The translations under genes were made by a program, and so were the position numbers. The notes below the pieces were generated by a model, which was not told the DNA's origin, did not search any database, and saw only the letters and a program-made list of their open reading frames with translations. A stretch of DNA of 64,000 nucleotides from an uncultured Gammaproteobacteria bacterium. GTDB taxonomy: Bacteria > Patescibacteriota > Patescibacteriia > Magasanikbacterales > GWA2-37-8. Numbering within the stretch: the stretch's first letter is position 1; each line of letters opens with the position of its first letter. Location of the stretch: the NCBI GenBank assembly GCA_964540825.1, contig CAZINT010000003.1:19250-83249 (forward strand), given 5' to 3'. Of the stretch, positions 1 to 28,942 are shown piece after piece.

Positions 1-2291
1 TCGACCTTAAGGCGTTCCATGGTACGATATTTTTGCGCATCGCCAGCAAACCAACCGATGGCGCAATCTATTTGATCAACTAATTCCCCGGTATTTTTAA
101 CAAGATTAATAATGTTACCCGCTGGATTAAAACCAGACGCTAAGGAATAGAGTGCATCAGCTGGAATATTACGCACCACCTCATCATTACTTCTTTCAAG
201 TAAAAAATAATCGTGAGCAGCGATAAATTTATTTTTTAAAGCGATGTCCATTGGCTGACCAGAAACAAAAATTTTCCAACCCGTAAGATCAATCGGATTA
301 TCCGTCGTGTTATATAATTCTATCCACTGGTTACTCGAGTACTCGCTGTTCGTGCCTGCCCAATCCACTTCGTTAATGACCACCTCTTGAGTATGCGGAA
401 TAAGGATACTTGTCACGGTACTCCACTCGGAAACATTGCCCGATGCATCACTAGCCCGAGCACGTAAAAAGTATTTCGTACCCCTGATTACTGGAAGTTT
501 AAAAACGGTACTGGTTGTCGAAGTAGCAACATCTTGCCATATTTTTTCTGTACTTGTCGTTGTACTTAATGAAAGATCGTAAAGTATCACTGGCGACCCA
601 GTATCGGTACTGCTCAGGGTAACTTGCAGCGTTGGGCTCACTGACTCCTTCAAAAAAACTACGTTAATTTCCGGGATACTTGGAGCACTTGTATCAACGA
701 TGGGTAGAACCGGTTCAGTAGAAGACGTTGAAGTAGCAGTTAAGGTTGTTGGGACTGCTGCAACACTAGATGTGCTCGCAGGAAGAGTACTCGACGCTAT
801 AACATCAATCGTTGTAGTAGTAAAAAGAGTAGTCGTCACCACACTATCCGCAACATTTTCAGCCTGCATAGCACTTGTAGCGCTTCCACCGTTTGTATCA
901 GGAGTACTACTTTTAGGGACAAGTGTCGGCTTCGGGGTTATCACTTTTATTACAGGATCAATTGGAGCTTCTATTTTAAGGCCAAGCACAGCCTGCGCTG
1001 GAGTCTGAATAACTTTTTTAGGCGCCTGGACTGGAGCTGCGGGCTTGGGAATAGTTGGCAGCTCTGGCCCATACGGATCAGCGGCTACAGGTTGAGGGCT
1101 CAGAAGACTAATGTTCTCAGTTTGCACCAAAGGAGCCGGCGTATCAAATAACGAATTAAAACTATTTTGCAAAAAAGTTACCGCTGGCAAAATATAGCCA
1201 AACCCGAGTGAGTACATTTTATTCCCCTTAACCGTAGTTGGTATGGGCGGCAATAATGCCGGGTTTTTCTTAGCATTTTCACCTTCTTGTTTAAAAAGCT
1301 TAATAACTCCTGCGCCGTCGAGAACAGCTGCGGTGGAGAGGCGGGTGAAGTAGGCGGAAAGAACTAGAGGATTATCAGCATTATCAATAAGAGAATATTT
1401 TTTTGCAAAAGTGAAAGTATTCTTATCAAATATACTTCTAACGCTGACTAAGGGAAATTTTTTACCTTCTTTATCGTTTGCATATCCATAACCATTTTCT
1501 TCTATTAATATTTGCGGTTTCGAATATTTATAAGAATTGATAGTATGCTCACTAAAAAAATAATTATTTGAGTAACTAGCCAGGTCATCAAAATAAGCAT
1601 CAAGTGAACCAAAAATTACCGGCTGTTCCTTATTTTTTAATAAATGAGGAGATAGTTTTAAATTTCCACGTGAAAACTGATCCGCAAAATCTTCATAAGG
1701 GCTTCCACCATCCTGCGTTATCGCACTAGCATCATGTACATGCGTATCGTTACGGGTATGATCGGGCACGGTAGCGTCTTCGAGCAAGTGAAGAATGTGA
1801 CCTAAAATATAATAAGCTTTGTCAGTATCACCCTCGGCATAAGCACGCACCCCGTTTTCCCACGTGTTATTACCACCAAAATCTGAGTATTTAGTTTGCA
1901 AAAGTTCAGCATGAGCCCATTTTTTGGAAGAGAGTATTTCGGTATTAGCATTTAAGAATACTTTAGTAAAAACCTGAAGCACTCCCTGAGGAATTATGCC
2001 TAAATTTTGAGCGAGCCATCCGTCGTTAGTCGTGGGGTCATAAAAATGATTGAGCCAACGCGGCGGTGTATCTTCATCGATTGAGCCTTTAATTATTTGC
2101 TCTTTATCCTTAGAAGTAATTTTTTGATCAGGGAATGAAGTGTTATAAAAATCAACAATTTGATCAGTTAGAGCAGGGTGCGTTGTATTAGTTGCGTAAC
2201 TAAGTGCAATTTTGGGACAAGCTAATTGAGTAAAAAATAAAACTGCCAGAGCAAATAAAAAGAAACGTGCTTTCTTTTTTATATTTTTCAT
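1..2291 (-). CDS. Secreted zinc-dependent phospholipase C / P1-nuclease superfamily protein with Ser/Thr-rich linker, Ig/FN3-like module and C-terminal lamin-tail domain (LTD). Partial: the C-terminus runs off the window start.
   Basis: Not in the ORF track because it is open at position 1. Translating the minus strand from the ATG at 2291 gives MKNIKKKARFFLFALAVLFF, a signal peptide. Downstream motifs NHFYDPTTNDGW and YILGHILHLLEDATVPDHT match the HFWDPD and GxxxHxxxDxxxPxH zinc ligand motifs of PLC/alpha-toxin N-domains. A long T/S-rich linker follows. The C-terminal segment VINEVDWAGTNSEYSSNQWIELYNTTDNPIDLTGWKI is a typical lamin-tail domain. No stop codon occurs before position 1. Confidence 0.6.
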   Translation of the reverse strand, partial: MKNIKKKARFFLFALAVLFFTQLACPKIALSYATNTTHPALTDQIVDFYNTSFPDQKITSKDKEQIIKGSIDEDTPPRWLNHFYDPTTNDGWLAQNLGIIPQGVLQVFTKVFLNANTEILSSKKWAHAELLQTKYSDFGGNNTWENGVRAYAEGDTDKAYYILGHILHLLEDATVPDHTRNDTHVHDASAITQDGGSPYEDFADQFSRGNLKLSPHLLKNKEQPVIFGSLDAYFDDLASYSNNYFFSEHTINSYKYSKPQILIEENGYGYANDKEGKKFPLVSVRSIFDKNTFTFAKKYSLIDNADNPLVLSAYFTRLSTAAVLDGAGVIKLFKQEGENAKKNPALLPPIPTTVKGNKMYSLGFGYILPAVTFLQNSFNSLFDTPAPLVQTENISLLSPQPVAADPYGPELPTIPKPAAPVQAPKKVIQTPAQAVLGLKIEAPIDPVIKVITPKPTLVPKSSTPDTNGGSATSAMQAENVADSVVTTTLFTTTTIDVIASSTLPASTSSVAAVPTTLTATSTSSTEPVLPIVDTSAPSIPEINVVFLKESVSPTLQVTLSSTDTGSPVILYDLSLSTTTSTEKIWQDVATSTTSTVFKLPVIRGTKYFLRARASDASGNVSEWSTVTSILIPHTQEVVINEVDWAGTNSEYSSNQWIELYNTTDNPIDLTGWKIFVSGQPMDIALKNKFIAAHDYFLLERSNDEVVRNIPADALYSLASGFNPAGNIINLVKNTGELVDQIDCAIGWFAGDAQKYRTMERLKV

Positions 2292-2296
2292 AAACC

Positions 2297-2794
2297 CTAC
2301 AATTCAGCTATTTTCCAGTTGCCATTCGGATATTTTGCAAAATCAAATAACACTCTGTTCTCAGTTGAGAAATTGTATTTATTCATCCTTAACCAAAGCG
2401 GTTCTCTTGTTTTTATTTCCTCAACCCCTTCTTTGGTCACTTTTAACAATTCTTGTAATTTATTCTCTTGCCCTCCTTTTTTAAGAGTTTTATTCCACTC
2501 CTCCTGCTTACTCAAAATAAAATATTTACTTGCCAAATCATAATCTCCCTTTTCAACAGCAGTGATAAATAATTCTAACGTCTCTTTGGGCGTTGCACCG
2601 CCATAGGTGTCTTCGAGGTACGGCCGCTCTTCTTCGGCCTGAAGCGCAGCGAGATCGCGATTAAATTTCCAGGTTTGATATTTTGGCCAACCCCACATGA
2701 TTAAAAAAAGTATCACTATTAAACCAACTAAAATAACGAACGTAATTTCCATTTTTTTAAGAGCCGTTTTTTTTGGATCACTCTCCATATGCAT
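2297..2794 (-). CDS. Hypothetical membrane-anchored protein, likely co-transcribed with the downstream PLC-LTD gene (5 bp gap).
   Basis: ORF track 165 aa. One hydrophobic segment, ITFVILVGLIVILFLIMWGW. No recognisable domain. Confidence 0.45.
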   Translation of the reverse strand: MHMESDPKKTALKKMEITFVILVGLIVILFLIMWGWPKYQTWKFNRDLAALQAEEERPYLEDTYGGATPKETLELFITAVEKGDYDLASKYFILSKQEEWNKTLKKGGQENKLQELLKVTKEGVEEIKTREPLWLRMNKYNFSTENRVLFDFAKYPNGNWKIAEL

Positions 2795-2928
2795 AATTAA
2801 TAAATAAATTTTTCATCCATATTATTTCATACCGCCACCCACAAAACAATAATCAGTCAACTGGTTTTTCCACCGCCGTCAAAAATTTTTTTACTCAATA
2901 AGCATTGACAAAACCCTTAAAATAAGGT

Positions 2929-3639
2929 ATGGAACCATTAACTACAACGGAGCGTCACATGCAGGATTTCACCGTCCTCATATTCTATGGCGCTCAAAGT
3001 GGGGCGCCCGATCTTTCACCCGCCGACGGCGCAGCAATGACCGCGCTTGGGCGAGCGATTGATGCTTACCTGGCTATCAGCCACGAAGAGCTCGCGTTCG
3101 CTGTGACAGGCACACAGCAATCGGCACTCGTGGCTACCGCACGTATACAAGCAGAGCTTGAGTACCGCATTCAAACAGAGCAGCGGCCCTGTCTCGACGA
3201 CCTGTCTTCGAGCTGCTACGAACTGTCGGCCAGCCAGCACCAGAGCCTACTCTCTGAGTGTCAGGAGGCATACGGACGAGTTACACCGCGCAGTATGGCC
3301 GGACTTTTCCAAACGCAGCCGGCTCGGGTGCGCCAGTGTATCCAAGAATACTTCCGCCGTGGTGCAACCGAGATTACGAGCATCCTTGCCCAGCTAGCAC
3401 ATGTGGCCGGAGTCTTTCCGGACAAAAAGATAGCTGGTCTTTGGCTCGCCAATCGCTTTAGCTTTGTGGAAGGAATGTTCCGCTACCTGAACGGCATACG
3501 GGGAGACGACCTACTTCACAATTTGGCTATCGATCTGCTCCGCGAAGATGAAGGGCATCAAGCCATCTTTCGGCAAAAAGATGGCGGGCCGGTGCTCGAC
3601 CGCATCGAACGCATCGTCTTGCCCACCCTCACCACCTAA
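2929..3639 (+). CDS. Hypothetical protein, first gene of GC-rich islet 1.
   Basis: ORF track 236 aa. Markedly higher GC than flanking DNA. AAGG Shine-Dalgarno site before the ATG. Overlapping alternate-frame ORFs rejected as GC artefacts. Confidence 0.45.
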   Translation: MEPLTTTERHMQDFTVLIFYGAQSGAPDLSPADGAAMTALGRAIDAYLAISHEELAFAVTGTQQSALVATARIQAELEYRIQTEQRPCLDDLSSSCYELSASQHQSLLSECQEAYGRVTPRSMAGLFQTQPARVRQCIQEYFRRGATEITSILAQLAHVAGVFPDKKIAGLWLANRFSFVEGMFRYLNGIRGDDLLHNLAIDLLREDEGHQAIFRQKDGGPVLDRIERIVLPTLTT

Positions 3640-3856
3640 CTACCGTCGGCCGCATCAGCCTACTGATCGCGGCCGACGAGAAATTTCCCATCCTTAATGA
3701 GGTTGGTTTTTTTATTTTTTAAAAATAATTTTGAACCTTTATTATATTGACATGGTCGTAATTTTGTGATTAACTATGCTGTTGGCTAGGGTTAAAAACC
3801 TGCCTTCAGAGAACACCCTTCACAACAGCTGCAGAAAATCGCTGGAGGAAGCAACC

Positions 3857-4570
3857 ATGTCTACGACCCACGAAGTGCTTTTTTTGCAAGAGCCACTGCA
3901 CGATGGACGCGAGCTCTCGATCGAGGCACGCGCCCACCTCATCGCCGTCGGGCGACTGCTCAGCCTGCAGATGAGAGCCAGAAAGGAGAGCATCGGCCAC
4001 ATCGGGATCAGCAACAACTCGGTGAGCCGTGACTGCGCCAAGCTCTTCGAAAAGGGCTTCGGCGACGAGCCGCGCTCCATGCAGATGGCCAGCTACTTCG
4101 GGGACTTCTTCCGGAACGCGACTCATCTCAGCACCGCGAGCCGCGATGCCATCATACGGCTCGCGCAAAACGGCGGTTCCGCGCCCCCGACCTCCAAGTC
4201 GGTGAAGATCGTGCTCAGGCAGAACCCCAGGCTCCTCTCCGAGGTCATCCCCTACATCCACGAGTACGCCACGCACCTCCTCAGCATCGCGAAGGTGCTC
4301 GACCACCGCTCCGAGGAGGTCGGCGCCGAAGCGAGCGGCACGTCGCTCGTCGGCATCATCTTCGTCTCCGACCTCAACCTCGCCGAGCTCGCGATCAGCC
4401 GCCTCGAGGGCAAGCGCAGCACGGACCTGCCCACCCACGCCCTCGATTTGCGCCTGAAGCCGACGCGCGGCCTGCGCATCACCGTCAAGGTCAGCGACCA
4501 GATCGAGGGAGCCTGCTTCGCGACGAGTCAGATCAACTTCCCGGAGCTCGAGGGGAAGAACAAGAGCTGA
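3857..4570 (+). CDS. Hypothetical protein (GC-rich islet 1). Start moved to MSTTHEV.
   Basis: Third-position GC is near-saturated in this frame only. GGAGGA Shine-Dalgarno site 7 nt upstream of the ATG at 3857. The antisense ORF 3806..4438 has R/A/G/D-rich junk composition. Confidence 0.5.
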   Translation: MSTTHEVLFLQEPLHDGRELSIEARAHLIAVGRLLSLQMRARKESIGHIGISNNSVSRDCAKLFEKGFGDEPRSMQMASYFGDFFRNATHLSTASRDAIIRLAQNGGSAPPTSKSVKIVLRQNPRLLSEVIPYIHEYATHLLSIAKVLDHRSEEVGAEASGTSLVGIIFVSDLNLAELAISRLEGKRSTDLPTHALDLRLKPTRGLRITVKVSDQIEGACFATSQINFPELEGKNKS

Positions 4571-4584
4571 AACACGTCACAGTG

Positions 4585-4635
4585 CCGGCCGCGCGAACCC
4601 ACCACAAGGAGCGCGCGGCCGGTCTTCCATTTCTC
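4585..4635. terminator. GC-rich hairpin terminator between the convergent islet genes.
   Basis: CCGGCCGCGCG (4585-4595), then a 16-nt loop, then CGCGCGGCCGG (4612-4622), followed by a T-rich tract. A second imperfect hairpin at 4676-4730 faces the minus-strand gene. Confidence 0.45.
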
Positions 4636-4738
4636 AACCAACACCGGTTGATTTTTTTATTTTAAAAACAAAGGACCCGCACCAGAAGTGTTCCGAACTG
4701 AATCGGTTCTGATGCGGGTTGGTTGGAGTGCTGCGCCG

Positions 4739-5218
4739 CTAGAACGGCAGGCGCAGCCGGAGGTCGTCGCAGTAGCGGTAGCTGTACCCGATACACCGAG
4801 CCTCGTTCTCGCGGCGCTTGCGCCCGAGGAGCTTGTCCGCCATCGGGCACAGATCGGTGATCTGATACTTCATCCCGGCGGTACGCGAAGGATCAAGTGA
4901 AGCCGGGCAGAGGTACTCGAGCCCCTCGCCGGTGGCGGTGTAGACCACCTGCAGCCGACGACCACCCGATGTCTTCTTGACGATCTCGTACTTCCAGGCC
5001 GTCGCGACGGGGCTCGTGGCGATCAGCCAGTCGAGCTGCTCGCTGGACGGCGCGCTGTCGCCCATGTAGACGTAGCGCGCGGAGTCACCGGCCAGGTAGA
5101 AGGTCAGGACGTGCTCCTCGTTCGGGATGATGAGGTCGTTGATCATCGGGACGGCACCCAGGAACCAGATGAAAAGGCAGGTAATGACCGAGGCAGCGAC
5201 TAGCAAACGCTTCTTCAC
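4739..5218 (-). CDS. Hypothetical secreted or membrane-anchored protein (GC-rich islet 1), GTG start.
   Basis: ORF track 159 aa. N-terminal hydrophobic segment. AAGGAGG Shine-Dalgarno site 6 nt upstream of the GTG. Very high third-position GC. Confidence 0.5.
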   Translation of the reverse strand: MKKRLLVAASVITCLFIWFLGAVPMINDLIIPNEEHVLTFYLAGDSARYVYMGDSAPSSEQLDWLIATSPVATAWKYEIVKKTSGGRRLQVVYTATGEGLEYLCPASLDPSRTAGMKYQITDLCPMADKLLGRKRRENEARCIGYSYRYCDDLRLRLPF

Positions 5219-5411
5219 GATAGGCCTCCTTTTGTGGGCATGGTTCTGACAGCAAGACTGTCATAAGTTTACCCACAAAATATTTCTTTCATTATACTTT
5301 CATATACTCAAAATTTTTTCAATGCTGAGTACAGGAGTCGAGACTTTTTGAAAGGCGTCTCGACCGATGCCTTGCTGCCTGGGGCGGTAGCTGCCTTTGT
5401 GCTTCGGGCGT

Positions 5412-5801
5412 CTAGCGGTCGTCGTCGACGCAGGGCCGCACGCGGATCCCCTGCCCCCTTGTCTCGGGGTGCAGGAAGTCGAAGATCATTTGCTGGGCAT
5501 CGTTGATGTTCCCGCCACCGACCTGCTTGTGCGTGAGCAGATAGGCCTTGGCTCCGCTGCCGCGAACGGTATCGATCGACAGCGACCACTCCTGCAACCC
5601 GGGCGGCGCCAGATTCACGAAGTTGCAGATGGTGTCGCGCGGCGGCTGCACCTCGAGCTTCGACTCGATGACGTTGTCGTAGCGCAGGATGTAGTAGGTG
5701 TGACGCTGGAACTGATCGCGATAGACCATATGGAGCAGCGCTCCAAGCAGCACAGCCACGGCCAAGGCTCTCAGTGGATACACAGCCAGATACTGACGCA
5801 T
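5412..5801 (-). CDS. Hypothetical secreted protein (GC-rich islet 1).
   Basis: ORF track 129 aa. Signal-like N-terminus LRALAVAVLLGALL. GAGGTGAG Shine-Dalgarno site. High third-position GC. Confidence 0.5.
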   Translation of the reverse strand: MRQYLAVYPLRALAVAVLLGALLHMVYRDQFQRHTYYILRYDNVIESKLEVQPPRDTICNFVNLAPPGLQEWSLSIDTVRGSGAKAYLLTHKQVGGGNINDAQQMIFDFLHPETRGQGIRVRPCVDDDR

Positions 5802-5922
5802 AGGCTCACCTCATACAGCATGGATGCGTTGTGCTCCCGTCTACAGCGCACCGCGCGCTTGCATACGGAAAACAGCTCATTCTATCTTTTTTGTGCTCAT
5901 ATGTCAAGGTTCTGCTCACCCA

Positions 5923-5951
5923 TTGACACGTTTTATGTAAGCAGGTATATT
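5923..5951 (+). promoter_or_regulatory. Sigma70-type promoter for the marR / ABC exporter operon.
   Basis: TTGACA (5923-5928), a 17-nt spacer, then TATATT (5946-5951), 27 nt upstream of the marR ATG. The palindrome TTACGTAA (5962-5969) between the -10 and the ATG is a candidate MarR operator. Confidence 0.55.
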
Positions 5952-5978
5952 ATTAAGCAACTTACGTAATATACATCT

Positions 5979-6404
5979 ATGCACCGCAATGAAATACTGC
6001 CTTTATTTTTAGAAAACATGAGCGTACTCAAGCGACTCATGCGCCCTGCGAAGCAGAACGGTTCGCACTCCGGCATAACACCGGCCCAAATCGGAATCAT
6101 GCTGACCCTTTGGCACGAAGGGCCCAAAAGCATCAAAGAACTTTCCGAACTCCTGTGCATGTCGTCGAGCGCAGCAACGCAGCTGGTGGACGGGTTGGTA
6201 CGCGAACGGCTGCTTGAACGCACTGAAGACCCGCTCGACCGACGCAAAATTTCAGTTGCTCTTACCGCCCGGGGTAAGAAGAAACTGGCCGCAGCCCGCA
6301 AAAATCACCTCGCGCTTATTGCCAAACTTTTCAAACCCCTCTCCGATACCGAGGTTCGCGAGCTCTACCGTTTACAACAAAAAATTATTTCCCATCTTGC
6401 TTAA
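5979..6404 (+). CDS. MarR-family transcriptional regulator.
   Basis: 141 aa. Winged-helix signature LTLWHEGPKSIKELSELL...DPLDRRKISVALTARGKK. Confidence 0.8.
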   Translation: MHRNEILPLFLENMSVLKRLMRPAKQNGSHSGITPAQIGIMLTLWHEGPKSIKELSELLCMSSSAATQLVDGLVRERLLERTEDPLDRRKISVALTARGKKKLAAARKNHLALIAKLFKPLSDTEVRELYRLQQKIISHLA

Positions 6405-6408
6405 CTTT

Positions 6409-8160
6409 ATGCCTCGACCTCCTAAAACAGACAATCCAGCAAAGCCTAAGGCAAACCTTTTTAGTCTGCTCAAAGACTACCGCGGACAAATAATCCTACT
6501 CGTCGTGCTCGCGATAGCAGCGAACGCGATCAACCTCGTGGTACCCAAAATTACCGCCCACGGTATCGACACCTTCACCCGCGGCACGTATTCGCTCAGC
6601 ACAACACTAACCCAATTTATTTTGGCGGGTGTGGGCATTTTGGTATTTACCGCGCTCCAAAGCGTGGTGCAAACCTATGCCTCGGAACGTGTCGCTCGTG
6701 ACCTGCGCGAAAAAACAGCGGCCAAAATTTCGCGTCAGAGTTATACGTATATTCAAACCGCTTCGCCCAGTAAACTTCTGACCAACTTAACATCAGACAT
6801 CGACTCGATTAAATTGTTTGTCTCAATGGCGATCGTTTCACTCGTGTCCTCACTCTTTCTTATTGTTGGCGCGAGCACGTTACTCCTCCTGACTGACTGG
6901 AAACTCGCCCTCGTTGTACTCATGATTATTCCCCTTATCGGCGGCACATTCTTTGTCGTCTTCAAACGAATTAGCGCCCTCTTTAAAAAACGTCAAGAAA
7001 TTATTGACTGGCTCAATAAAGTTATTAACGAAAGCATTCTTGGCGCTGCAATTGTTCGCGTGCTGCATTCCGAAGCGCGCGAGCATGAAAAATTCCGTGC
7101 GGCCAATACCGATGCGCTTAACACCGGTTTTGGCATCTTGAAACTGTTTGCTTCAATGATTCCGATTATCACCTTTGTAGCCAACCTCGCCACGCTTGCC
7201 ATTCTTCTCTTAGGCGGACACTTTGTTATCCAAGGTTCCATGACGCTCGGCAGCTTTGCCGCTTTCAACAGTTACATTGCCATTCTTATTTTCCCGATTA
7301 TCATTATCGGCTTTATGAGCAACGTGATTGCCCAGGCTACTGCTTCGTATCAGCGTGTTAGCGAAGTGCTTGATGCGCCAGAAGAAGCGGCTGTTGGTCA
7401 AAAGAGCGGTGCCCTTGAAGGCGCGATCGCGGCAAACGACATTACCCTTACTTTTGGTGAGAAGCCAACACTTAAAGATGTGTCGTTTACCATGCAGCGC
7501 AAAAGTAAAACCGCTATTATCGGCCCAACGGCTGCTGGAAAAACACAGCTATTATATTTGCTGATCGGATTACTCCAGCCAACCAAAGGCACCATCACCT
7601 ATGATGGCGCTAATATTAACGACTACGAAAAAACAAATTTTCATAGCCAGGTTGGTTTTGTGTTTCAGGACAGCATCATGTTCAACCTCACTATTCGTGA
7701 AAATATCGCTTTTAGTACGACGGTTACCAACGAAGCCTTGCAAAAAGCTATTGATACGGCCGAATTGACCGACTTTATTAACGAACTTCCTCAAGGACTC
7801 GACACGATCGTTTCAGAACGCGGTGCCAGTTTATCGGGCGGACAAAAACAGCGCATCATGCTGGCGCGTGCCTTGGCACTTGATCCAAAAATTTTATACC
7901 TCGACGACTTTACTGCCCGCGTTGACGGCAGCACTGAAAAACGAATTTTGGATAATCTCGAAAAAAATTATCCGGAGCTAACCCTCGTATCGGTAACTCA
8001 AAAAATCGCCTCGGTCGAACACTATGACCAAATCATTCTCCTCATGGAGGGTGAAATACTCGGGAAAGGCACCCATGACGAACTCATGGAGTCATGCCCT
8101 GAATACGTTCAAATTTATAATTCTCAGCGTAGCACCAACACCTATGAATTACACGCTTAA
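6409..8160 (+). CDS. ABC exporter permease/ATPase subunit (type I exporter), the subunit carrying the degenerate NBD. Start moved to MPRPP.
   Basis: Six-TM domain followed by an NBD. Walker A GPTAAGKTQ. Signature LSGGQKQR. Walker B ILYLDD followed by F, so the catalytic Glu is replaced by Asp. H-loop is VTQK (Gln instead of His). The track start at 6214 overlaps marR and was rejected. Confidence 0.85.
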   Translation: MPRPPKTDNPAKPKANLFSLLKDYRGQIILLVVLAIAANAINLVVPKITAHGIDTFTRGTYSLSTTLTQFILAGVGILVFTALQSVVQTYASERVARDLREKTAAKISRQSYTYIQTASPSKLLTNLTSDIDSIKLFVSMAIVSLVSSLFLIVGASTLLLLTDWKLALVVLMIIPLIGGTFFVVFKRISALFKKRQEIIDWLNKVINESILGAAIVRVLHSEAREHEKFRAANTDALNTGFGILKLFASMIPIITFVANLATLAILLLGGHFVIQGSMTLGSFAAFNSYIAILIFPIIIIGFMSNVIAQATASYQRVSEVLDAPEEAAVGQKSGALEGAIAANDITLTFGEKPTLKDVSFTMQRKSKTAIIGPTAAGKTQLLYLLIGLLQPTKGTITYDGANINDYEKTNFHSQVGFVFQDSIMFNLTIRENIAFSTTVTNEALQKAIDTAELTDFINELPQGLDTIVSERGASLSGGQKQRIMLARALALDPKILYLDDFTARVDGSTEKRILDNLEKNYPELTLVSVTQKIASVEHYDQIILLMEGEILGKGTHDELMESCPEYVQIYNSQRSTNTYELHA

Positions 8161-9910
8161 TAAAACCAAAGACCAGCTGAGTACAAAAACCAGCACACTC
8201 GCCCAGCTCAAAAACCTCTGGCCACTCCTCTCGCCTGAAAAAAAGAATCTGGCGTTGGCATCGGTAGCAATTCTGATTAATTCCGGCATGAACCTGGCCG
8301 CACCTATTTTGATCGGACAGGCGATTGATAGGTATATCGTTACCAAGCAATTCCACGGCGTTGTCGTCTACTCGGGTATTTTACTCGCCATGTACTTGGT
8401 AAGTTTGGTCACCAGTTATATCCAGACCATTACGATGGGCGGTGTTGGTCAGCGCACGCTATTCAATTTGCGCCGCAATATTTTTGACAAACTCCAAACA
8501 CTGCCGGTCGCTTTCTTTAACCAGAACAAAGCCGGTGACCTGATTTCACGCATCAATAACGACACGGATAAATTGAACCAATTCTTTTCCCAAGCCCTGG
8601 TACAGTTTGTTGCCAGTCTCTTCATGATTATCGGTGCCGGCGCCTTTATTATTATCCTGAGTCCGCACCTCGGCACTGCTTCCCTACTCCCGGCGGCTGT
8701 CTTACTTGTTTTTACTCAGGCAATTTCGCCCTGGATTAAAAAACAAAATGCCCTCAGTCTCAAAAGTATTGGCGGCCTGAGTGCCGAAATTCAAGAAAGC
8801 CTTAATAACTTCAAAGCCATCATCGCCTTTAATCGCCGTGATTATTTCCGTGAAAAATTTAACGAAGTTAACAACGATGCTTATACAACTTCGGTTAAAG
8901 CCGGCATCGTAAACACGGTGTTCCTGACTCCACTGTATGGTTTCGCCTCCAACTTAGCTCAGCTCATTGTTATTGCCTACGGTGTCTACTTGATTACGAT
9001 CGGCAACTTCACGCTGGGTCTCTTGATCAGCTTCCTCAGCTACCTGGTACGCTTCTATGACCCACTCCGCCAAATCGCGCAGCTCTGGAGCAGCTTCCAA
9101 GTGGCGCTCGCCAGCTGGGATCGTATTAGCGATATTTTATCGCTCGACTCTGACATGCAGGTTATCGCGAGCGAAAAAATTCCAGGCGCTCACGGACTTT
9201 TGGAATTTAAAAACGTTAAATTTGGCTACCCGGACGGCAAAGAAGTATTACATAATATCAACTTTATCCTTGAGCCCGGTAAAACCTACGCTTTGGTAGG
9301 GCCGACCGGTGGCGGCAAAACTACGACCGCGTCCCTCATGGCCCGCCTGTACGAGCCGACGGAAGGCACGGTGATCCTCAGCGGACAAGATATTCGGAGT
9401 TACACCGATGCTGAACGCGTTAAAAAAATCGGTTTTATTCTCCAGGAACCATTCTTATTTAGCGGTACGGTTGGTGAAAATATTGTGTATGGCACCGAAA
9501 GTGCCGAAGGATATTCGAGCGAAAAATTATTAGCAACACTTACCGAAGCTGGGCTCGATCACTTACTCGAACGCTTTGACGAAGGCCTGGCTACGAAAGT
9601 TAAGAGTAGCGGCGACTCCCTCAGTCTCGGTCAGCGCCAGATGGTCGCCTTTATTCGGGCGGTACTGCGCAAACCTGAACTCCTTATTCTCGACGAAGCT
9701 ACGGCCAATATCGACACGGTAACCGAACAGTTACTAGAAGAAGTGCTTAAAAAATTACCGACAACTACCACCCGAGTTATTATCGCGCACCGCCTGAATA
9801 CAATTGAAAATGCCGACGAAATTTTCTTTGTAAATGGCGGCCAAGTTACGCTCGCCGGCTCACTCGAGCATGCGGTTGAAATGCTACTCCACAATAAACG
9901 AAAAAGTTAA
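8144..9910 (+). CDS. ABC exporter permease/ATPase subunit with consensus NBD, partner of the previous gene. Start at MNYTLNK, overlapping the upstream stop by 17 nt.
   Basis: Walker A GPTGGGKTT. Walker B LILDEAT. H-loop IAHRL. Its signature is degenerate, LSLGQRQM, which pairs with the upstream subunit's degenerate Walker B and H-loop to form one non-canonical site. Confidence 0.85.
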   Translation: MNYTLNKTKDQLSTKTSTLAQLKNLWPLLSPEKKNLALASVAILINSGMNLAAPILIGQAIDRYIVTKQFHGVVVYSGILLAMYLVSLVTSYIQTITMGGVGQRTLFNLRRNIFDKLQTLPVAFFNQNKAGDLISRINNDTDKLNQFFSQALVQFVASLFMIIGAGAFIIILSPHLGTASLLPAAVLLVFTQAISPWIKKQNALSLKSIGGLSAEIQESLNNFKAIIAFNRRDYFREKFNEVNNDAYTTSVKAGIVNTVFLTPLYGFASNLAQLIVIAYGVYLITIGNFTLGLLISFLSYLVRFYDPLRQIAQLWSSFQVALASWDRISDILSLDSDMQVIASEKIPGAHGLLEFKNVKFGYPDGKEVLHNINFILEPGKTYALVGPTGGGKTTTASLMARLYEPTEGTVILSGQDIRSYTDAERVKKIGFILQEPFLFSGTVGENIVYGTESAEGYSSEKLLATLTEAGLDHLLERFDEGLATKVKSSGDSLSLGQRQMVAFIRAVLRKPELLILDEATANIDTVTEQLLEEVLKKLPTTTTRVIIAHRLNTIENADEIFFVNGGQVTLAGSLEHAVEMLLHNKRKS

Positions 9911-9917
9911 AAACAAT

Positions 9918-9951
9918 AAAAAAATACTCCGCAAAGGCGGAGTATTTTTTT
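9918..9951. terminator. Bidirectional intrinsic terminator.
   Basis: TACTCCGC-AAAG-GCGGAGTA hairpin (9925-9944) flanked by an A-run and a T-run, between convergent genes. Confidence 0.7.
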
Positions 9952-9958
9952 ATTGTTT

Positions 9959-10327
9959 TTATTCTGGTTTATGACAAACAACTTCAATATTATTACCATC
10001 AAAATCATACACAAAGGCACCATAGTAATTTGCATGGTATTCATTGCGAAGCCCTGGAGCGCCGTTATCCTTACCGCCCGCCTCAAGCGCCGCCTTGTAA
10101 AAGGCGTCGACAAGCGAACGTTTTTCAGCGGTTACAGCAACGTGAACTGTTCCACGGTGCTCTTTTTGGCTTATCCATAAATCTGGTTTGCCATTTGCCC
10201 CAAATCCAGCTGCTTGCATTTCGGGAATATCCATAAGCATACTATAATTCAGTGGGGCCAAGGCTTTACTGTAAAATTCTTTGGATTTTTCGTAATTACT
10301 CACGTTAAGCGATGTATGATCAATCAT
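9959..10327 (-). CDS. VOC / glyoxalase-bleomycin resistance family protein.
   Basis: 122 aa. VOC-like fold pattern. N-terminal MIDHTSLNVSNYEKSKEFY resembles the glyoxalase I beta-alpha-beta-beta-beta start. Confidence 0.65.
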   Translation of the reverse strand: MIDHTSLNVSNYEKSKEFYSKALAPLNYSMLMDIPEMQAAGFGANGKPDLWISQKEHRGTVHVAVTAEKRSLVDAFYKAALEAGGKDNGAPGLRNEYHANYYGAFVYDFDGNNIEVVCHKPE

Positions 10328-10436
10328 ACGTGTAGAACTTAAAAATAAACTGAATAACTATCTAATCATACTTGAAAAACACTGTAAAGATTACGGATTG
10401 AAAGAAATGTAAAAAATTGGTACACTGCCCTATACC

Positions 10437-11759
10437 ATGTTCAAAAAAATAGCTCTTATCTCCATAGTCAGTATTGGCGCGATCCTAGCGACGCCTTATT
10501 TTGCAGTCGCCGAAACAGATATTGCCGCCGAGCAGGCCCAGTTGGAACAAGATTTAGCCGCAGTACAAGCGCAAATTGACGCGCTCCAGAGTCAAATCGC
10601 CGTCACCAAAGGTGAAAAGAATACCTTAGCAAATAAATTAAAACAGCTTCAGCAAGAACAATCAGCACTTAAATTGCAAATTAAAGCGGCAGCGCTCGAA
10701 TTAACGCAGGTACAAAAACAATTAGCAGCCACTGAGAAAAAAATAAATTCTAATATCGCCCAGCAAGAGCGGCTCAAGGTTCAGATTGGCGAGCTGCTGC
10801 GCCTCGTTAACAAACAAGACCGCGAATTACCCATTTTTAAATTAGCTCGAGCCGGCGGGTGGAGCGACGCTTTTATTGAAGCTACGAATTATCAAACACT
10901 GCTCAAAAACGTAGCCATCGTGACTAATGAGACCAAAAAATTAGCCGGCGAACTTTCAGAACAAAAAAACGCCTATAGCGAGCAAGAAGACGACGCTGCG
11001 CACATCTTGAGCGTTACCAAAATGCAGCAAAGCGCCCTAACCGACAAAGTATCCGAACAAAACAGCCTCTTAAAAGAAACCCAAGGGAAAGAAGCTGACT
11101 ATCAAAAATTACTGGCCGATAATCAAAAACAGGCGGCAGCAATTAAAAGCCGCATGTACGAGCTTCTCGGCGGCGGCAAACAAATTGATTTTGGCGAGGC
11201 AGTCACTATCGCCAAATGGGTCAGCAGTCAGATTAGCGGCGTTGAGCCCGCCTTTCTCCTAGCGATTTTGACGCAAGAGTCATCGCTCGGTAAAAATGTG
11301 GGCACGTGCAATCGCCTGAATGATCCGCCTGAAAAAAGCTGGAAAGTAATTATGAAACCCGACCGTGATCAAGAGCCGTTTAAAACAATTACCGCCGAGC
11401 TTGGCCGCAACATCGACATCACACCCGTTTCCTGCCCGATGAAAAATAAAGATGGCAGTCAGCTGGGCTGGGGCGGCGCTATGGGGCCGGCACAGTTTAT
11501 TCCCTCAACCTGGATGGGGTACAAAGACAAGGTAACCAAACTTACCGGCAAACCGGCCGACCCCTGGGACATTCGCGACGCGTTCGTCGCAGCGGGAATA
11601 CTCCTCAAGGCTAATGGCGCTAATGGCACGGACGATGGCTATTGGAAGGCAGCCATGCGCTACTTCTCGGGCGGAACCAATACCAAATACCGATTCTACG
11701 GCGACAATGTTCTTAAAACTACGGAAAAATATCGGGCTGATATTAAAGAGCTTGAATAA
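10437..11759 (+). CDS. Secreted coiled-coil protein with a C-terminal lytic-transglycosylase (SLT)-like domain.
   Basis: Signal peptide. About 230 aa of Q/L/A-rich heptads. C-terminal motifs LTQESS (Glu-Ser), GPAQFIPSTW (GLMQ-like) and RYFSGG (AYNAG-like). Confidence 0.5.
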   Translation: MFKKIALISIVSIGAILATPYFAVAETDIAAEQAQLEQDLAAVQAQIDALQSQIAVTKGEKNTLANKLKQLQQEQSALKLQIKAAALELTQVQKQLAATEKKINSNIAQQERLKVQIGELLRLVNKQDRELPIFKLARAGGWSDAFIEATNYQTLLKNVAIVTNETKKLAGELSEQKNAYSEQEDDAAHILSVTKMQQSALTDKVSEQNSLLKETQGKEADYQKLLADNQKQAAAIKSRMYELLGGGKQIDFGEAVTIAKWVSSQISGVEPAFLLAILTQESSLGKNVGTCNRLNDPPEKSWKVIMKPDRDQEPFKTITAELGRNIDITPVSCPMKNKDGSQLGWGGAMGPAQFIPSTWMGYKDKVTKLTGKPADPWDIRDAFVAAGILLKANGANGTDDGYWKAAMRYFSGGTNTKYRFYGDNVLKTTEKYRADIKELE

Positions 11760-11760
11760 T

Positions 11761-11797
11761 AAAAAAAGTCCCTGAGAAATACACAGGGACTTTTTTA
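11761..11797. terminator. Bidirectional intrinsic terminator.
   Basis: GTCCCTG-agaaataca-CAGGGAC followed by TTTTTT. An A-run lies upstream. Confidence 0.7.
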
Positions 11798-11806
11798 TTT
11801 TGGTTG

Positions 11807-12196
11807 CTATTTAAACCATGCCTTTTTCCACGCATTCATCTGTTCGATCTCGGTCGTTTGTGCAGCAATAATATCGTTGGCGAGATTTCGTAATTCTTCT
11901 CGTTTAGATTTTTCGAGCACTGTGTTGGCCATATCCACCGCTCCTTCGTGGTGCACAATCATTTCATCAAGAAAGGCCTTGTCAAAATCATCTCCGGTTT
12001 TGTCTTTCAGCCCGGCAGCCATATCATCCATCATTTTGCTCATCGATCCATGCCCCATATCATCCATGCGCGCAGGATACTCTTGAGTCGGGGCTTTCAC
12101 TTCTGCTTTAGGCATTACCCGCACACTGTAGCCAAGTACAGCGCCGAGGACAAGCATCACCAGACCCGCAATAACCGTTTGATTTTTATTTTCCAT
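11807..12196 (-). CDS. DUF305-family (ferritin-like) protein. Start moved to MENKNQ.
   Basis: DFDKAFLDEMIVHHEGAVDMA is the characteristic DUF305 motif. N-terminal TM or signal anchor. Confidence 0.6.
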   Translation of the reverse strand: MENKNQTVIAGLVMLVLGAVLGYSVRVMPKAEVKAPTQEYPARMDDMGHGSMSKMMDDMAAGLKDKTGDDFDKAFLDEMIVHHEGAVDMANTVLEKSKREELRNLANDIIAAQTTEIEQMNAWKKAWFK

Positions 12197-18838: not shown

Positions 18839-18902
18839 ACTAACTAAACGATCGACAGCGCTATAATAAAAATACCCCGGTTACCAGGGTATTTTTAGCA
18901 TG

Positions 18903-18989
18903 CGGAGAGGGAGGGATTCGAACCCTCGAGGGCGGTGAAGCCCTGCAGCTTTAGCAAAGCTGGACGATAGACCACTCTGACACCTCTCC
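18903..18989 (-). tRNA. tRNA-Ser (anticodon GCU), class II with long variable arm.
   Basis: Reverse complement reads GGAGAGG...CAGCT-TTGCTAA-AGCTG, a 5-bp anticodon stem and 7-nt loop giving anticodon GCT. Variable arm AGGGC-TTCACC-GCCCT. T-arm GAGGG-TTCGAAT-CCCTC. G73 discriminator. CCA is not encoded. Confidence 0.8.
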
Positions 18990-19018
18990 CTGATTTACTA
19001 TATGGGTACGCTGGTTTG

Positions 19019-19105
19019 CGGAGAGACTGGGATTCGAACCCAGGGAACTCTTGCGAGTTCGGCAGTTTAGTAAACTGCTGCTTTCAACCGCTCAGCCATC
19101 TCTCC
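19019..19105 (-). tRNA. Class II tRNA with Ser-type identity elements. Anticodon loop reads UUACUAA, so the apparent anticodon is ACU.
   Basis: Reverse complement: GGAGAGA-TG-GCT-GAGCGGTTGAA-AGC-A-GCAGT-TTACTAA-ACTGC-(GAACTC-GCAA-GAGTTC)-CTGGG-TTCGAAT-CCCAG-TCTCTCC-G. The cloverleaf is clean, with G73 and a long variable arm as in tRNA-Ser. Position 34 is A rather than the G of its neighbour. Confidence 0.6.
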
Positions 19106-22451: not shown

Positions 22452-23174
22452 CTATCCCCGTGCGCCGACCAGACCCCAAACTTTTTCACACCCAGCCGCG
22501 AGTAAAACACGGGCGCATTCGCCCAGCGTACTGCCCGTGGTATAGACATCATCAACTAAAATTATGTTTTTTGATCCAGATGCTTGAGCAGCCTTAAATG
22601 CGCCATCCAAATTATGCTCTCGACCTTGTTTATCGAGCCGCGCTTGGTGAGGCGTATTTTTAATACGAATTAGAATTTTTGGCTCGATGCGTACAGAATA
22701 TCCAAGGCGCCGAAGACTTGCAGCGGCCTGACCAGCTAAAACTAACGATTGATTAAATCCCCGTTCTCGCTCGCGGCCGGGATGGAGCGGGACCGGTACT
22801 AAAACCACTTCTTCGCTTGGACGGAGCCATTCCGGAGGCTGGAAAACAAAATAAGTATAAAATAACTTTTCCCAGAGCCCGGCGGTATCAAGTGCTCCCT
22901 GGTATTTTAGAGCTTTGATAAGTTTGGCAGGCGGACCATCTTCTTCATAATTAAATAAAGCCGTAAGCCCGGCGAGGGATCCTACGGCTTTATTTAAAGT
23001 ACTCTGCTCTACTAAAAAAGGAAATTCTTTTTGACACTTTTCACACCACCACGATCCTTCGGACGAACACGTTACACAAAAACAAGGAAACAAGACCGAA
23101 CTTAAGAAATTACTGAGCCGCTTAAACAACATACTAAAAGTACGCTTCGGCAAAAATAAAATTATTTTCCCCAA
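22452..23174 (-). CDS. comFC: ComF-family phosphoribosyltransferase-domain competence protein (ComFC).
   Basis: N-terminal Cys4 zinc finger CFCVTC...CEKC. C-terminal PRTase loop IILVDDVYTTGSTL. Last gene of the T4SS-like operon (13-nt overlap with the upstream gene). Confidence 0.7.
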   Translation of the reverse strand: MGKIILFLPKRTFSMLFKRLSNFLSSVLFPCFCVTCSSEGSWWCEKCQKEFPFLVEQSTLNKAVGSLAGLTALFNYEEDGPPAKLIKALKYQGALDTAGLWEKLFYTYFVFQPPEWLRPSEEVVLVPVPLHPGRERERGFNQSLVLAGQAAASLRRLGYSVRIEPKILIRIKNTPHQARLDKQGREHNLDGAFKAAQASGSKNIILVDDVYTTGSTLGECARVLLAAGCEKVWGLVGARG

Positions 23175-23752
23175 ACAAAATTACTGACCAGCCAAGTATC
23201 CCCTGTTTTTACCATGGAGACCGTTATATTTTGCTGTACGCTGCTTGGCACAGTTCCCTGCAGTTGATTTCGGACAGTTTTGAAAAAGAATTCTGCATTT
23301 GTTCCTGACCATTTTTGAACATCCATGGTTACTACTTGAGTGGTAACTCCGGTAAAGACAGCTGCTTTAGCGGTAGTTTTGGGTGCAATTTTTTGCCACA
23401 GCTCAGGGGTTACGAGCGAGCGCACTTCTTCAAGATTTTGTGAATTGTTATCGGTTGAATACGTTCCATAGCGTTCCACAAAAATACGGGCTAATTGTTT
23501 GGCACCATTTTGTTCAATTTCATCCGATGTACGAGCGCGAATCGGCAGTCCGGCGGGAATAGTTGTAGGCTGCTGGCCAGTTTCAATCGGTAGGGTTTCT
23601 CCCGGAGTTGTACTGGTAGAAGATGGTGTTTGGCTTGTTCCTGCAGGCGTATTTTTATTTCGTGAGCGAACAAAGAAAATAGCCCCGATTATAAGTCCGA
23701 CGACTACAACTACGCCAATAATGATAAAAATACGAGAACGGAGTGAAAGCAT
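23162..23752 (-). CDS. Bitopic membrane protein of the T4SS-like operon. Possible VirB8-like (NTF2-like C-domain) component.
   Basis: N-terminal TM helix, Thr/Pro-rich linker, about 120-aa globular C-domain. The VirB8 assignment rests on architecture and position only. Confidence 0.35.
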   Translation of the reverse strand: MLSLRSRIFIIIGVVVVVGLIIGAIFFVRSRNKNTPAGTSQTPSSTSTTPGETLPIETGQQPTTIPAGLPIRARTSDEIEQNGAKQLARIFVERYGTYSTDNNSQNLEEVRSLVTPELWQKIAPKTTAKAAVFTGVTTQVVTMDVQKWSGTNAEFFFKTVRNQLQGTVPSSVQQNITVSMVKTGDTWLVSNFVWGK

Positions 23753-23790
23753 ACAGTAAAATAATAAGTAAGCAGGTTAATACCAAATTT

Positions 23791-25671
23791 TTAAGCGGCG
23801 CTTTGCTGGTCAAATTCTTTTTTGGCTTTTTCAATATCCAAAAGCTGCTGCGGATTAGTAGTTACAATCTGGTCTTCGGTGTAGGACGCGACAACTTTAA
23901 TAGCGGCGTGCTTAAGCCCCGCAAAAAATATACCTTCCCCAATACCGCTTTCGAGGAGCAGATATTTTTCGCTGTCAGTCAGCAAGAACACTTTTTGGAT
24001 AAGATCAATTGCCGCCGGAGACTGACGCATCAGAAGCTGCAACGACGAGCTGGTAACAATGGCCTGACCGTACTGCGACTTTAAAAAGTCATTAACATCC
24101 TGAGTAATCGTCGTCACGCCAAGGAAATACTTGCGGCATCGTTTGACCAGCGCATAAATAAAGCGGGCACTATCTTCATGCTGCATGAGCCACCAGGCTT
24201 CATCAATAACGAGAATACGCTTTTTGCTTTCACTACGAACAACGTTCCAAATATAGTTAACAATAGCATAGATACCTAAGGGGCGCAGCTCATCTTCAAG
24301 ATCACGGACACTGAATACAACCAATTGGTTTTTCATGTCCACGTTTGTGGGCGAATTAAATAAGCCGCTAAATGTTCCTTCGGTAAACTTCTGAAGTTTC
24401 AAAATAAGCTGGCTTGAGCCTTCCATACCTTCCAAAATTTCTTGCAAATCCTGCATGATCGGCGGCTGAACCGTATTGAGATCCGCTTCGGCCGTGATAT
24501 CTTTTTTGGCATAGGTTTCAATGAGCGCCCTGTCGACAATGGAATCTTCTTCGGTGGTTATACCGCCAAGCATGATGCGCAAAAGCCCTTTGACGGTAAT
24601 AACCGCACCGCGAATAATATCTTCAGTCGAAAAATCTTTACCAGTCGGGCGCGGCAAATCAAACGGGTTAATTTTACTTTCACTTGAGAGTGAAATATTA
24701 ATATAGGTTCCACCAACCGCATCGGACAAATGTTTGTATTCCATTTCCGGGTCAATAATAATCACCTCGACGCCCATCATGAGACTGCGTAAAATTTCGA
24801 GTTTAATCGCATAACTTTTACCCGCACCAGAGGTCGCAAACACCACCATGTTAGCGTTCTGCAAAGAAAACCGGTCAAACAAAATAAGGCTGTTATTGTG
24901 GCGGTTGATGCCGTATAAAATACCATCGTCACTCGTAAGCTCTGCCGAAATAAACGGGAACGACGCGGCAATCGGCGACGAGTTCATGTTAAACGCAATC
25001 ATCAGCTCGTCATTACACAGCGGCAGCGTGGAGTTAAAACCCTGCTCGCCTTGGAACAATACTTTGCGGCTGCTGATCAGTTTAGCGCCGAAGATACCCT
25101 CGATGTCTTCCGAAATTTGATCCAGCTTTTCTTTGGTCTCGGCGTAGACAGTGACGTAAAAAGCAAATTGGAAAAAGTGCTCAACCCCCTGGGTTAAATT
25201 ATCGCGCAGCTGTTCAACATCGCGCAGCGCCGTCTCGCGGAGCGGATCCCTTGGGGCGCCCTTGTCGGCATCAGCGTTAATCTGGGCTTCGAGTGCACCA
25301 ACTTTGTTTTTGAGTTGTTTTAAAATAATTTCCGCCTTCACCGGATAAAAGAACATACTGATATCCATGGTGATCGACAAGTTAATCACCGGCGAACTCC
25401 AACCGATCGAAATATAACGGGGATATGAAACAATAAAAATCGTGCGGCAAAAAACCGTACCCAGTTGCAAAAAATTTGTTTCAACATTAAAGGCAGCGGG
25501 TGCAATAAGGTCGCGAATGGATACCACGCCTTCTCTGTAAATCCGCTCTTCTTCAAGCGTGATGAGTTCATCCTGCTCCTTTTTTTTGAGCACGGTTTCC
25601 TCGCTGACCATTTTTTTCTTGGCCAGTGATTCACTGTCTTTGCTGTTTAAAATCGACGGTTTAAAAGCCAT
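23791..25671 (-). CDS. VirB4/TrbE/CagE-family T4SS ATPase, C-terminal ATPase portion.
   Basis: Walker A VVFATSGAGKSYAIK. Walker B RILVIDEAWWLMQ. Overall VirB4 C-domain pattern. Confidence 0.85.
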   Translation of the reverse strand: MAFKPSILNSKDSESLAKKKMVSEETVLKKKEQDELITLEEERIYREGVVSIRDLIAPAAFNVETNFLQLGTVFCRTIFIVSYPRYISIGWSSPVINLSITMDISMFFYPVKAEIILKQLKNKVGALEAQINADADKGAPRDPLRETALRDVEQLRDNLTQGVEHFFQFAFYVTVYAETKEKLDQISEDIEGIFGAKLISSRKVLFQGEQGFNSTLPLCNDELMIAFNMNSSPIAASFPFISAELTSDDGILYGINRHNNSLILFDRFSLQNANMVVFATSGAGKSYAIKLEILRSLMMGVEVIIIDPEMEYKHLSDAVGGTYINISLSSESKINPFDLPRPTGKDFSTEDIIRGAVITVKGLLRIMLGGITTEEDSIVDRALIETYAKKDITAEADLNTVQPPIMQDLQEILEGMEGSSQLILKLQKFTEGTFSGLFNSPTNVDMKNQLVVFSVRDLEDELRPLGIYAIVNYIWNVVRSESKKRILVIDEAWWLMQHEDSARFIYALVKRCRKYFLGVTTITQDVNDFLKSQYGQAIVTSSSLQLLMRQSPAAIDLIQKVFLLTDSEKYLLLESGIGEGIFFAGLKHAAIKVVASYTEDQIVTTNPQQLLDIEKAKKEFDQQSAA

Positions 25672-25685
25672 ACAACTACAAAAAA

Positions 25686-26813: not shown

Positions 26814-26815
26814 AA

Positions 26816-27940: not shown

Positions 27941-27941
27941 A

Positions 27942-28925: not shown

Positions 28926-28942
28926 TTTATTCTAAATAGAAC

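Follow-up and report, generated by a model that had tools for sequence, protein, structure and literature searches.

A two-gene cassette of Patescibacteria that very probably encodes a surface phospholipase C-like zinc phosphodiesterase

The gene pair and its products

The stretch analysed here, called the window throughout, comprises 64,000 nucleotides of contig CAZINT010000003.1 (GenBank assembly GCA_964540825.1, positions 19,250 to 83,249 of the forward strand). At its start lie two genes on the minus strand that are the subject of this work. The larger is an open reading frame (ORF) that begins with an ATG at position 2291 and runs through 763 codons to the edge of the window without a stop. 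The smaller, referred to as the partner gene (2297..2794, minus strand), is a 165-codon ORF with a product of 163-165 residues, the database start being at 2788, and it ends 5 nucleotides ahead of the start codon of the large gene. A preliminary description of this DNA had taken the two for an operon in which a small membrane-protein gene directly precedes the gene of a secreted zinc phosphoesterase similar to phospholipase C (PLC); both the narrow gap and the comparison of loci described below bear this arrangement out. Taken together, the data make it very likely that the pair is a two-gene surface cassette of Patescibacteria (the candidate phyla radiation, CPR) with a PLC-like zinc phosphodiesterase.

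The missing end of the large gene was recovered from a Logan copy of the region (L081), which agrees with window positions 1-12000 without a single mismatch and reaches 7.7 kb beyond. The full-length product has 1,265 residues, 502 of which are encoded outside the window (L081:12787-14295). A homology search with the partner protein retrieved an identical 163-residue protein (P0121) on a 215-kb NCBI contig, of which L081 is the Logan copy. An exact look-up of the 165-residue partner ORF found nothing, the database entry starting two codons further on, and no exact DNA match to the first 60 bases of the window was found among the genome and metagenome contigs searched.

Residues 1-31 of the large product (MKNIKKKARFFLFALAVLFFTQLACPKIALS; 2199..2291, minus strand) form a typical signal peptide, with a basic n-region, a hydrophobic core (Kyte-Doolittle peak of 1.9) and A-L-S at positions -3 to -1, and signal peptidase I would cut before Tyr32. 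The cut was placed by rule, and its surroundings are conserved in an alignment that sets the window protein beside 80 relatives taken from genomes that represent species (81 sequences with an overall identity of 35-74%, used for all the conservation counts given below): position -1 is Ala, Ser or Gly in 80 sequences, and position +1 is occupied by Tyr (77 sequences), Phe (2) or Trp (1). No transmembrane segment was found after the catalytic domain, where hydropathy reaches a maximum of 0.89 (family median 0.93). With this value, FGYILPAVTFLQ was rejected as a membrane-dipping hydrophobic segment behind the catalytic domain; a lipoprotein anchored via the lipobox 'QLAC' was likewise rejected, the motif being non-canonical and unconserved in the orthologs. 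The signal peptide, the lack of a later transmembrane segment and the FN3, LTD (lamin-tail domain), PKD and beta-helix modules found in relatives all point to an extracellular protein.

The partner protein matches Pfam DUF4878 (PF12870) with 29.1 bits (cut-off 24.1), over profile positions 4-62 of 112 only, and the same family is matched by 26 of 61 partner relatives. Its AlphaFold2 model, with a predicted local distance difference test score (pLDDT) of 90, consists of a helix at residues 5-59, which would form a membrane span and a stalk, and of a compact alpha/beta domain. Foldseek gave no significant match for this model, whose predicted ectodomain has three strands, and the profile of the partner family, compared with the PDB, retrieved designed NTF2 proteins only, and these weakly (E 0.05-0.3). 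Since the Foldseek search was empty, it is the Pfam match that suggests an NTF2-like fold. Basic residues precede the membrane span, so that the ectodomain should face outward. The family has as invariant features a D-x-Y-G-G-x-T-P-x-E-T motif and a C-terminal W-K. DUF4878 comprises NTF2-like proteins that are extracytoplasmic and have no catalytic function; ligand binding and the regulation of co-encoded hydrolases have been proposed as their roles. More generally, extracytoplasmic NTF2-like domains serve as ligand binders, immunity proteins or regulators of potentially suicidal hydrolases (PMC3924330).

The catalytic domain and its active site

Pfam, profile searches, hhalign, AlphaFold2 and Foldseek were combined to characterize residues 32-342 of the large product (1266..2198, minus strand), which we assign as a PLC-like trinuclear-zinc phosphodiesterase domain. 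A search with residues 1-383 gave 138 relatives, and a profile was built from 82 of them, 35 of which match PF00882 (Zn_dep_PLPC) at E < 0.01. Against all PDB sequences this profile found only the phosphatidylcholine-preferring PLC (PC-PLC) of Bacillus cereus (1ah7, E 2.8e-4) and Listeria PlcB (E 0.025). In hhalign, the probability was 94.4% for B. cereus PC-PLC, compared with 2.8% for P1 nuclease, with which only the H-x3-D-x5-H motif aligns; the sequences used had been checked, the first being identical to 1ah7_A and the second confirmed against 1ak0. No Pfam match to the S1-P1 nuclease family (PF02265) was obtained for the window protein at E <= 1.

The fold leads to the same placement. An alignment-based AlphaFold2 model of the catalytic domain (mean pLDDT 91.7) was compared with the PDB by Foldseek, and each of the best 17 matches is either a zinc PLC or an alpha-toxin of clostridia (E 4e-5 to 1e-2), with TM-scores, normalised to target length, of about 0.6 for the single-domain PLCs. 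For the S1/P1 structures AtBFN2, SmNuc1 and TBN1, the E values are no better than 1.3-3.7 and the TM-scores are 0.22-0.41. The domain has the all-alpha fold of PLCs, to which the model adds two elements absent from PLC, a four-stranded sheet at residues 263-300 and a long helix at residues 309-342. The profile, hhalign and AlphaFold2/Foldseek results therefore place the domain in the PLC/P1 superfamily, on the PLC side. It is a divergent branch with PLC affinity and it fails every S1/P1 test. The preliminary description had named PLC and P1 nuclease in one breath as the superfamily concerned; the first half of this assignment holds, with a reservation about PF00882 that is discussed below, and the S1/P1 nuclease family is left unmatched.

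Both sequence motifs on which that description was based are present. NHFYDP occupies residues 81-86 (2034..2051, minus strand) and the H-x3-D-x3-P-x-H motif, H168-LLE-D172-ATV-P176-D-H178, residues 168-178 (1758..1790, minus strand). We take the zinc ligands of B. cereus PC-PLC to be the backbone N and O of Trp1 together with His14, Asp55, His69, His118, Asp122, His128, His142 and Glu146. In the hhalign alignment, His82 pairs with His69, His168 with His118, Asp172 with Asp122, His178 with His128 and Glu200 with Glu146; His38 and Asp74 were assigned as ligands from the Pfam alignment and from their conservation. The proposed ligands are the backbone of Tyr32, His38, Asp74, His82, His168, Asp172, His178 and Glu200. 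Eight of the nine metal-ligand positions are conserved, with little or no variation, the exceptions to full invariance being Tyr32 (77/81) and His38 (80/81). This conservation speaks for selection on the active site. The residues found in all 81 sequences are Glu73, Asp74, Arg78, His82, Trp125, His168, Asp172, Pro176, His178, Thr179, Arg180, Asp182, His184, Ser197, Glu200 and Phe245. They include an R180-x-D182-x-H184 motif, directly after His178, that is specific to the family. The N-terminal Trp of PC-PLC and of P1 nuclease binds zinc by its free amino group and its carbonyl, and Tyr32 would be suitably placed for such binding after cleavage by signal peptidase.

Distribution, accessory modules and genomic surroundings

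Relatives of the large gene are encoded in at least 567 species-representative genomes, as judged from a scan of one genome per species. Those with organism names are almost all Patescibacteria, from Parcubacteria/Paceibacteria lineages (Azam-, Yonath-, Nomura-, Wolfe-, Lipton-, Jorgensen-, Sung-, Yanofsky-, Niyogi- and Terrybacteria) and from the Magasanikbacteria. An apparent occurrence in DPANN archaea (L042, on JAUYPG010000062.1, labelled Nanoarchaeota) was rejected: the contig carries ClpP and a bacterial tyrosyl-tRNA synthetase, and it has the look of a mis-binned bacterium. The labels Gammaproteobacteria, Omnitrophota, Dehalococcoidales and Saccharibacteria, found on other contigs of metagenome-assembled genomes with the cassette, are doubtful and probably reflect errors of binning or labelling. 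The names attached to the 138 relatives are uninformative, reading 'hypothetical protein' or 'lamin tail domain-containing protein' where given.

Gene neighbourhoods were counted over 80 loci. A partner homolog is present in 76 of them, and in 73 it lies immediately upstream in the same orientation; the loci lacking an adjacent partner mostly lack upstream sequence. No other neighbour is common to more than 14 loci, and the recurrent ones (a PG_binding protein, a PaaX-like protein, an IS200 transposase, SpoU and the arginyl-tRNA synthetase) are uninformative on function. The constant unit therefore consists of two genes. A scan for promoters and terminators placed the cassette at chance level. 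The full architecture of the window protein recurs in its closest orthologs, L001 (74% identity) and L002 (68%).

Behind the catalytic domain, a low-complexity linker rich in Pro, Thr, Ser and Val (residues 343-535; 687..1265, minus strand), with no Pfam match and no transmembrane segment, leads to an FN3-like beta-sandwich module (residues 536-634; 390..686, minus strand), the order given in the preliminary description. A profile of seven sequences of this module matches the FN3 structures of titin, contactin-3 and chitinase A1 (E 2e-14 to 8e-5); for the single sequence, the match to Pfam fn3 is weak and under the cut-off (E 0.054). The LTD follows at residues 634-742 (66..392, minus strand) with 54 bits for PF00932 (cut-off 34.3). 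It had been thought to be truncated by the window edge; it is in fact essentially complete, since the part encoded in the window covers profile positions 5-106 of 109, and what is cut is the protein, the ORF running off the window after the first 21 codons behind the LTD (1..65, minus strand). The extension with L081 shows that the remainder is no LTD. The 502 residues outside the window form two repeats of about 250 residues, internal repeats being found in relatives as well; PF13229 (Beta_helix) matches this domain with 22.4 bits (E 1e-4, under the cut-off of 25.9), and its profile matches the alginate lyase 7o84 at E 5e-4. These matches suggest that the C-terminal 500 residues or so are a beta-helix-like domain. 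In relatives, Beta_helix matches reach E 1e-16.

The module content was surveyed in 45 complete relatives: an LTD is found in 36, Beta_helix in 12, NosD in 6, fn3 in 8, PKD in 7, staphylococcal nuclease (SNase) in 2 and the ComEA-like HHH_3 in 1. A beta-helix is present in about a quarter to a third of the relatives, the catalytic domain and the partner being constant, and some relatives show a weak CBM-like context. L042 has three LTDs within one protein. In the window protein, the NCBIfam ExeM model gives a weak match that is restricted to the LTD (E 0.004).

The window has a G+C content of about 45%, and the rest of it encodes leucyl-tRNA synthetase, GroEL, ComEC, a TraG/VirB4-like ATPase, ABC exporters and a protein of 2,642 residues, a gene content that fits a small-genome Patescibacteria bacterium. 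Patches of higher G+C (up to 0.59 over a background of about 0.45) are located at 2929-5969, at about 20-22 kb and at about 32-34 kb. The first is directly upstream of the cassette and holds four ORFs for which Pfam gave nothing (2929-3639, 3776-4570 and 5397-5969 on the plus strand and 4739-5218 on the minus strand); in L002, a high-G+C orphan ORF (4636-5322, minus strand) is also found just upstream of the cassette, with weak similarity to the window patch (E 1e-3).

Several other genes of the window were noted. Two adjoining tRNA-Ser genes (19018-19105 and 18902-18989, both minus strand) are 78% alike; one has the anticodon ACT (A34, loop TTACTAA; 56.9 bits in Rfam) and the other GCT. A serine tRNA with A34 is rare and may stem from the decoding of a reduced genome. 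The leucyl-tRNA synthetase (954 residues; 58737-61601, minus strand) contains a NUDIX domain (PF00293, 48 bits) at residues 385-505, between the editing domain and the remainder of the catalytic core. The giant ORF (33535-41463, minus strand; 2,642 residues) has a sub-threshold CBM_4_9 match (24.3 bits) as its sole domain match and is probably another large surface protein. A same-strand run of genes at about 22452-31744 (minus strand), in which a TraG/VirB4-like P-loop ATPase (PF19044, 98.8 bits; e.g. 23791-25671, minus strand) and a 933-residue protein with no Pfam match are encoded, could represent a gene cluster for type IV secretion or a conjugation-like process. Finally, the ComEC homolog (507 residues; 56216-57739, minus strand) has Competence and DUF4131 domains, and no metallo-beta-lactamase domain was detected in the ORF.

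The substrate and comparison with known systems

We propose that the cassette works as follows. Signal peptidase would take off residues 1-31, and Tyr32, now at the N-terminus, would bind to a trinuclear zinc centre through its free amino group and its carbonyl, by homology with Trp1 of B. cereus PC-PLC. The other ligands would be His38, Asp74, His82, His168, Asp172, His178 and Glu200, with His184 in the place of His142. The zinc centre would activate a water molecule that cuts a phosphodiester bond, most likely that of the head group of host or prey membrane phospholipids, giving diacylglycerol and a phospho-head group. The lipid products set free could then feed an organism that belongs to a group reported to lack lipid synthesis. 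The linker, the FN3 module, the LTD and the beta-helix would set the enzyme apart from the cell and attach it to envelope structures, and the co-transcribed, membrane-anchored NTF2-like partner might dock the anchorless enzyme to the membrane of the producer, or shield that membrane.

Confidence in this scheme as a whole, phospholipid included, is tentative and falls a little short of even. Phospholipid is favoured because all the detectable similarity, in sequence and in fold, points to PLCs, and because a membrane-anchored partner fits best with a danger or a product that is located at a membrane. It is also favoured by what has been written on the organisms and on the LTD. CPR bacteria are described as having neither lipid nor nucleotide synthesis and are reported to recycle host lipids (PMC8080830, citing Probst 2020); LTDs occur together with membrane-associated phosphoesterases, and a role in targeting proteins to membranes has been proposed for them (PMC6085458, citing Mans 2004).

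A number of observations weigh against the scheme, some of them touching the enzyme class and others the substrate. PF00882, which had been suggested as a check together with PF02265 and PF00932, matches the whole protein with 21.6 bits (E 2e-4), below its gathering cut-off of 26.8, and the catalytic domain alone with 23.1 bits (E 8e-5), again under it; the match covers residues 37-181 and profile positions 1-98 of 167 only. Of the three models, only the LTD one thus passed its cut-off. In the active site, PLC His142 is replaced by Gly196 (Gly in 69 of the 81 sequences), and the third zinc site is therefore non-canonical; His184, in the family-specific motif, is a candidate substitute. The window protein is not a clean PF00882 member, because its score is below the cut-off and one ligand is lost. 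None of the choline-pocket residues of PLC could be aligned. The spacing between mature Tyr1 and His7 (6 residues) is nearer to that of P1 nuclease (W1-H6) than to that of PLC (W1-H14), and a polyanionic substrate would be in keeping with the invariant Arg78 and Arg180. Among the relatives, three of 80 were found by phmmer to have an SNase domain (L047:5167-7074, L061:5914-9444 and L076:5983-9657), directly behind the PLC-like domain at residues of about 460-586, and a ComEA-like helix-hairpin-helix domain (HHH_3) occurs in P0037, ahead of its LTD, and in one locus protein. Lastly, LTDs are often tied to extracellular nucleases (PMC6085458, PMC4486849).

Several of these points would be accounted for if the same secreted zinc phosphodiesterase acted on nucleic acids or nucleotides in the manner of S1/P1 nucleases, as an endonuclease, a 3'-nucleotidase or both, and fed the CPR cell with nucleotides or nucleosides; the LTD would then bind DNA and the partner would be a dock or an inhibitor. 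The NucA/Nin pair of Bacillus subtilis offers a parallel for a nuclease with such a partner. We regard this alternative as rather unlikely. The SNase and HHH_3 fusions, the P1-like distance from the N-terminal aromatic residue to the first His, the two invariant Arg residues, the ComEC gene in the same window, the frequency of LTDs in extracellular nucleases together with the weak ExeM match, and the reported lack of nucleotide synthesis in CPR bacteria (PMC8080830) all speak for it. The placement of the catalytic domain does not: there is no Pfam S1-P1 match, hhalign gives 2.8% for P1 nuclease against 94.4% for PLC, and Foldseek gives E values above 1 for S1/P1 structures against 4e-5 for PLCs. 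Moreover, fusions to nuclease or DNA-binding domains concern only about 5% of the relatives and could be explained equally well by a surface protein with several activities, and the LTD of ExeM is dispensable for the degradation of extracellular DNA (PMC6085458).

Another phosphodiester at a cell surface might also be the target, be it teichoic or lipoteichoic acid, glycerophosphodiesters, links in a host capsule or, in a remodelling role, the envelope of the producer itself, with the beta-helix reading a glycan. The resemblance of the C-terminal domain to polysaccharide lyases argues for such a target, as do the Beta_helix/NosD, PKD and weak CBM-like context among relatives, the altered third metal site, and the divergence of a catalytic domain with large insertions (the sheet at 263-300 and the helix at 309-342). 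We know of no member of the PLC/P1 superfamily that uses a substrate of the teichoic-acid type or a similar phosphodiester, and the beta-helix is restricted to a quarter to a third of the relatives whereas the catalytic domain and the partner are constant, which makes this alternative quite improbable in our view. That the PLC-like domain has no catalytic activity and the protein is just an adhesin or a surface-layer component, as the loss of the canonical ligand His142 and the many adhesin-type modules could suggest, is hardly credible, given that the other eight ligand positions and further residues near the motifs show little or no variation among 81 sequences that are only 35-74% identical, which is the pattern expected of an active metalloenzyme.

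If phospholipids are the substrate, the cassette could be the long-sought lipid-harvesting device of Parcubacteria-type CPR, in which an arm made of the beta-helix, the LTD and the FN3 module grips the host envelope while the enzyme clips phospholipid head groups, and the partner captures diacylglycerol or protects the host-derived membrane of the symbiont; the family, its third metal site rebuilt, would then count as the third functional branch within the PLC/P1 superfamily. This picture is speculative and we consider it unlikely in its full detail. CPR bacteria make up a large share of bacterial diversity, and the cassette is a concrete candidate for the uptake of lipids or nucleotides from hosts that can be tested in vitro without culturing the organism. 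It is widespread, cleanly defined and biochemically tractable, if not astonishing to a specialist, and for enzymology it brings a PLC/P1 superfamily branch in which core motifs of PLC type are combined with an N-terminus resembling that of P1 and with a third zinc site that is substituted. Our literature search found no paper on a PLC-like/LTD/beta-helix family with an NTF2-like partner; in the literature found, the combination of these three modules with an NTF2-like membrane partner and a restriction, among named genomes, to Patescibacteria is undescribed.

Among known systems, the zinc PLCs (B. cereus PC-PLC, 1ah7; Listeria PlcB, 8cqm; Clostridium perfringens alpha-toxin, 1ca1) are the closest. 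They share with the window protein the all-helical fold, the HFYDP and H-x3-D-x5-H motifs, aligned Asp and Glu ligands, and secretion with an aromatic residue at the mature N-terminus, the latter depending here on the predicted cleavage. The identity is only 13-15%, however, and the window protein remains below the Pfam gathering score. The window family has a Tyr instead of the Trp, 6 rather than 13 residues ahead of the first His, a Gly in place of His142, and residues of its own that are invariant (R-x-D-x-H at 180-184, Arg78 and Trp125). Its domain is about 100 residues longer, owing to the beta-sheet insert and the long C-terminal helix. Where alpha-toxin has a PLAT-like domain, the window protein has the FN3 module, the LTD and the beta-helix, and the pairing with a membrane NTF2-like partner, adjacent in 73 of 80 loci, also sets the family apart.

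S1/P1 nucleases (P1, 1ak0; S1, 5fb9; SmNuc1, 8qjl) have the superfamily and the trinuclear-zinc chemistry in common with it, the H-x3-D-x5-H motif aligns, and the distance from the N-terminal aromatic residue to the first His is similarly short; they differ in all the comparisons of family and fold given above (no Pfam match, 2.8% in hhalign, Foldseek E > 1). ExeM of Shewanella (PMC6085458) is, like the window protein, a secreted, envelope-associated phosphoesterase with an LTD, but its LTD is N-terminal and its nuclease domain is of the EEP type, whereas the window protein has the LTD behind a PLC-like domain. For the partner, the nearest known proteins are those of the DUF4878/NTF2-like group (Cj0202c, 3K7C; PMC3924330), which it resembles in its membrane anchor, its extracytoplasmic location and its operon link to a hydrolase, as well as in the conserved Gly early in the domain and the Trp near the C-terminus that have been noted for that family. 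It differs from them in matching the first half of the profile only, in the three strands of its predicted ectodomain and in having a D-x-Y-G-G-x-T-P-x-E-T motif of its own.

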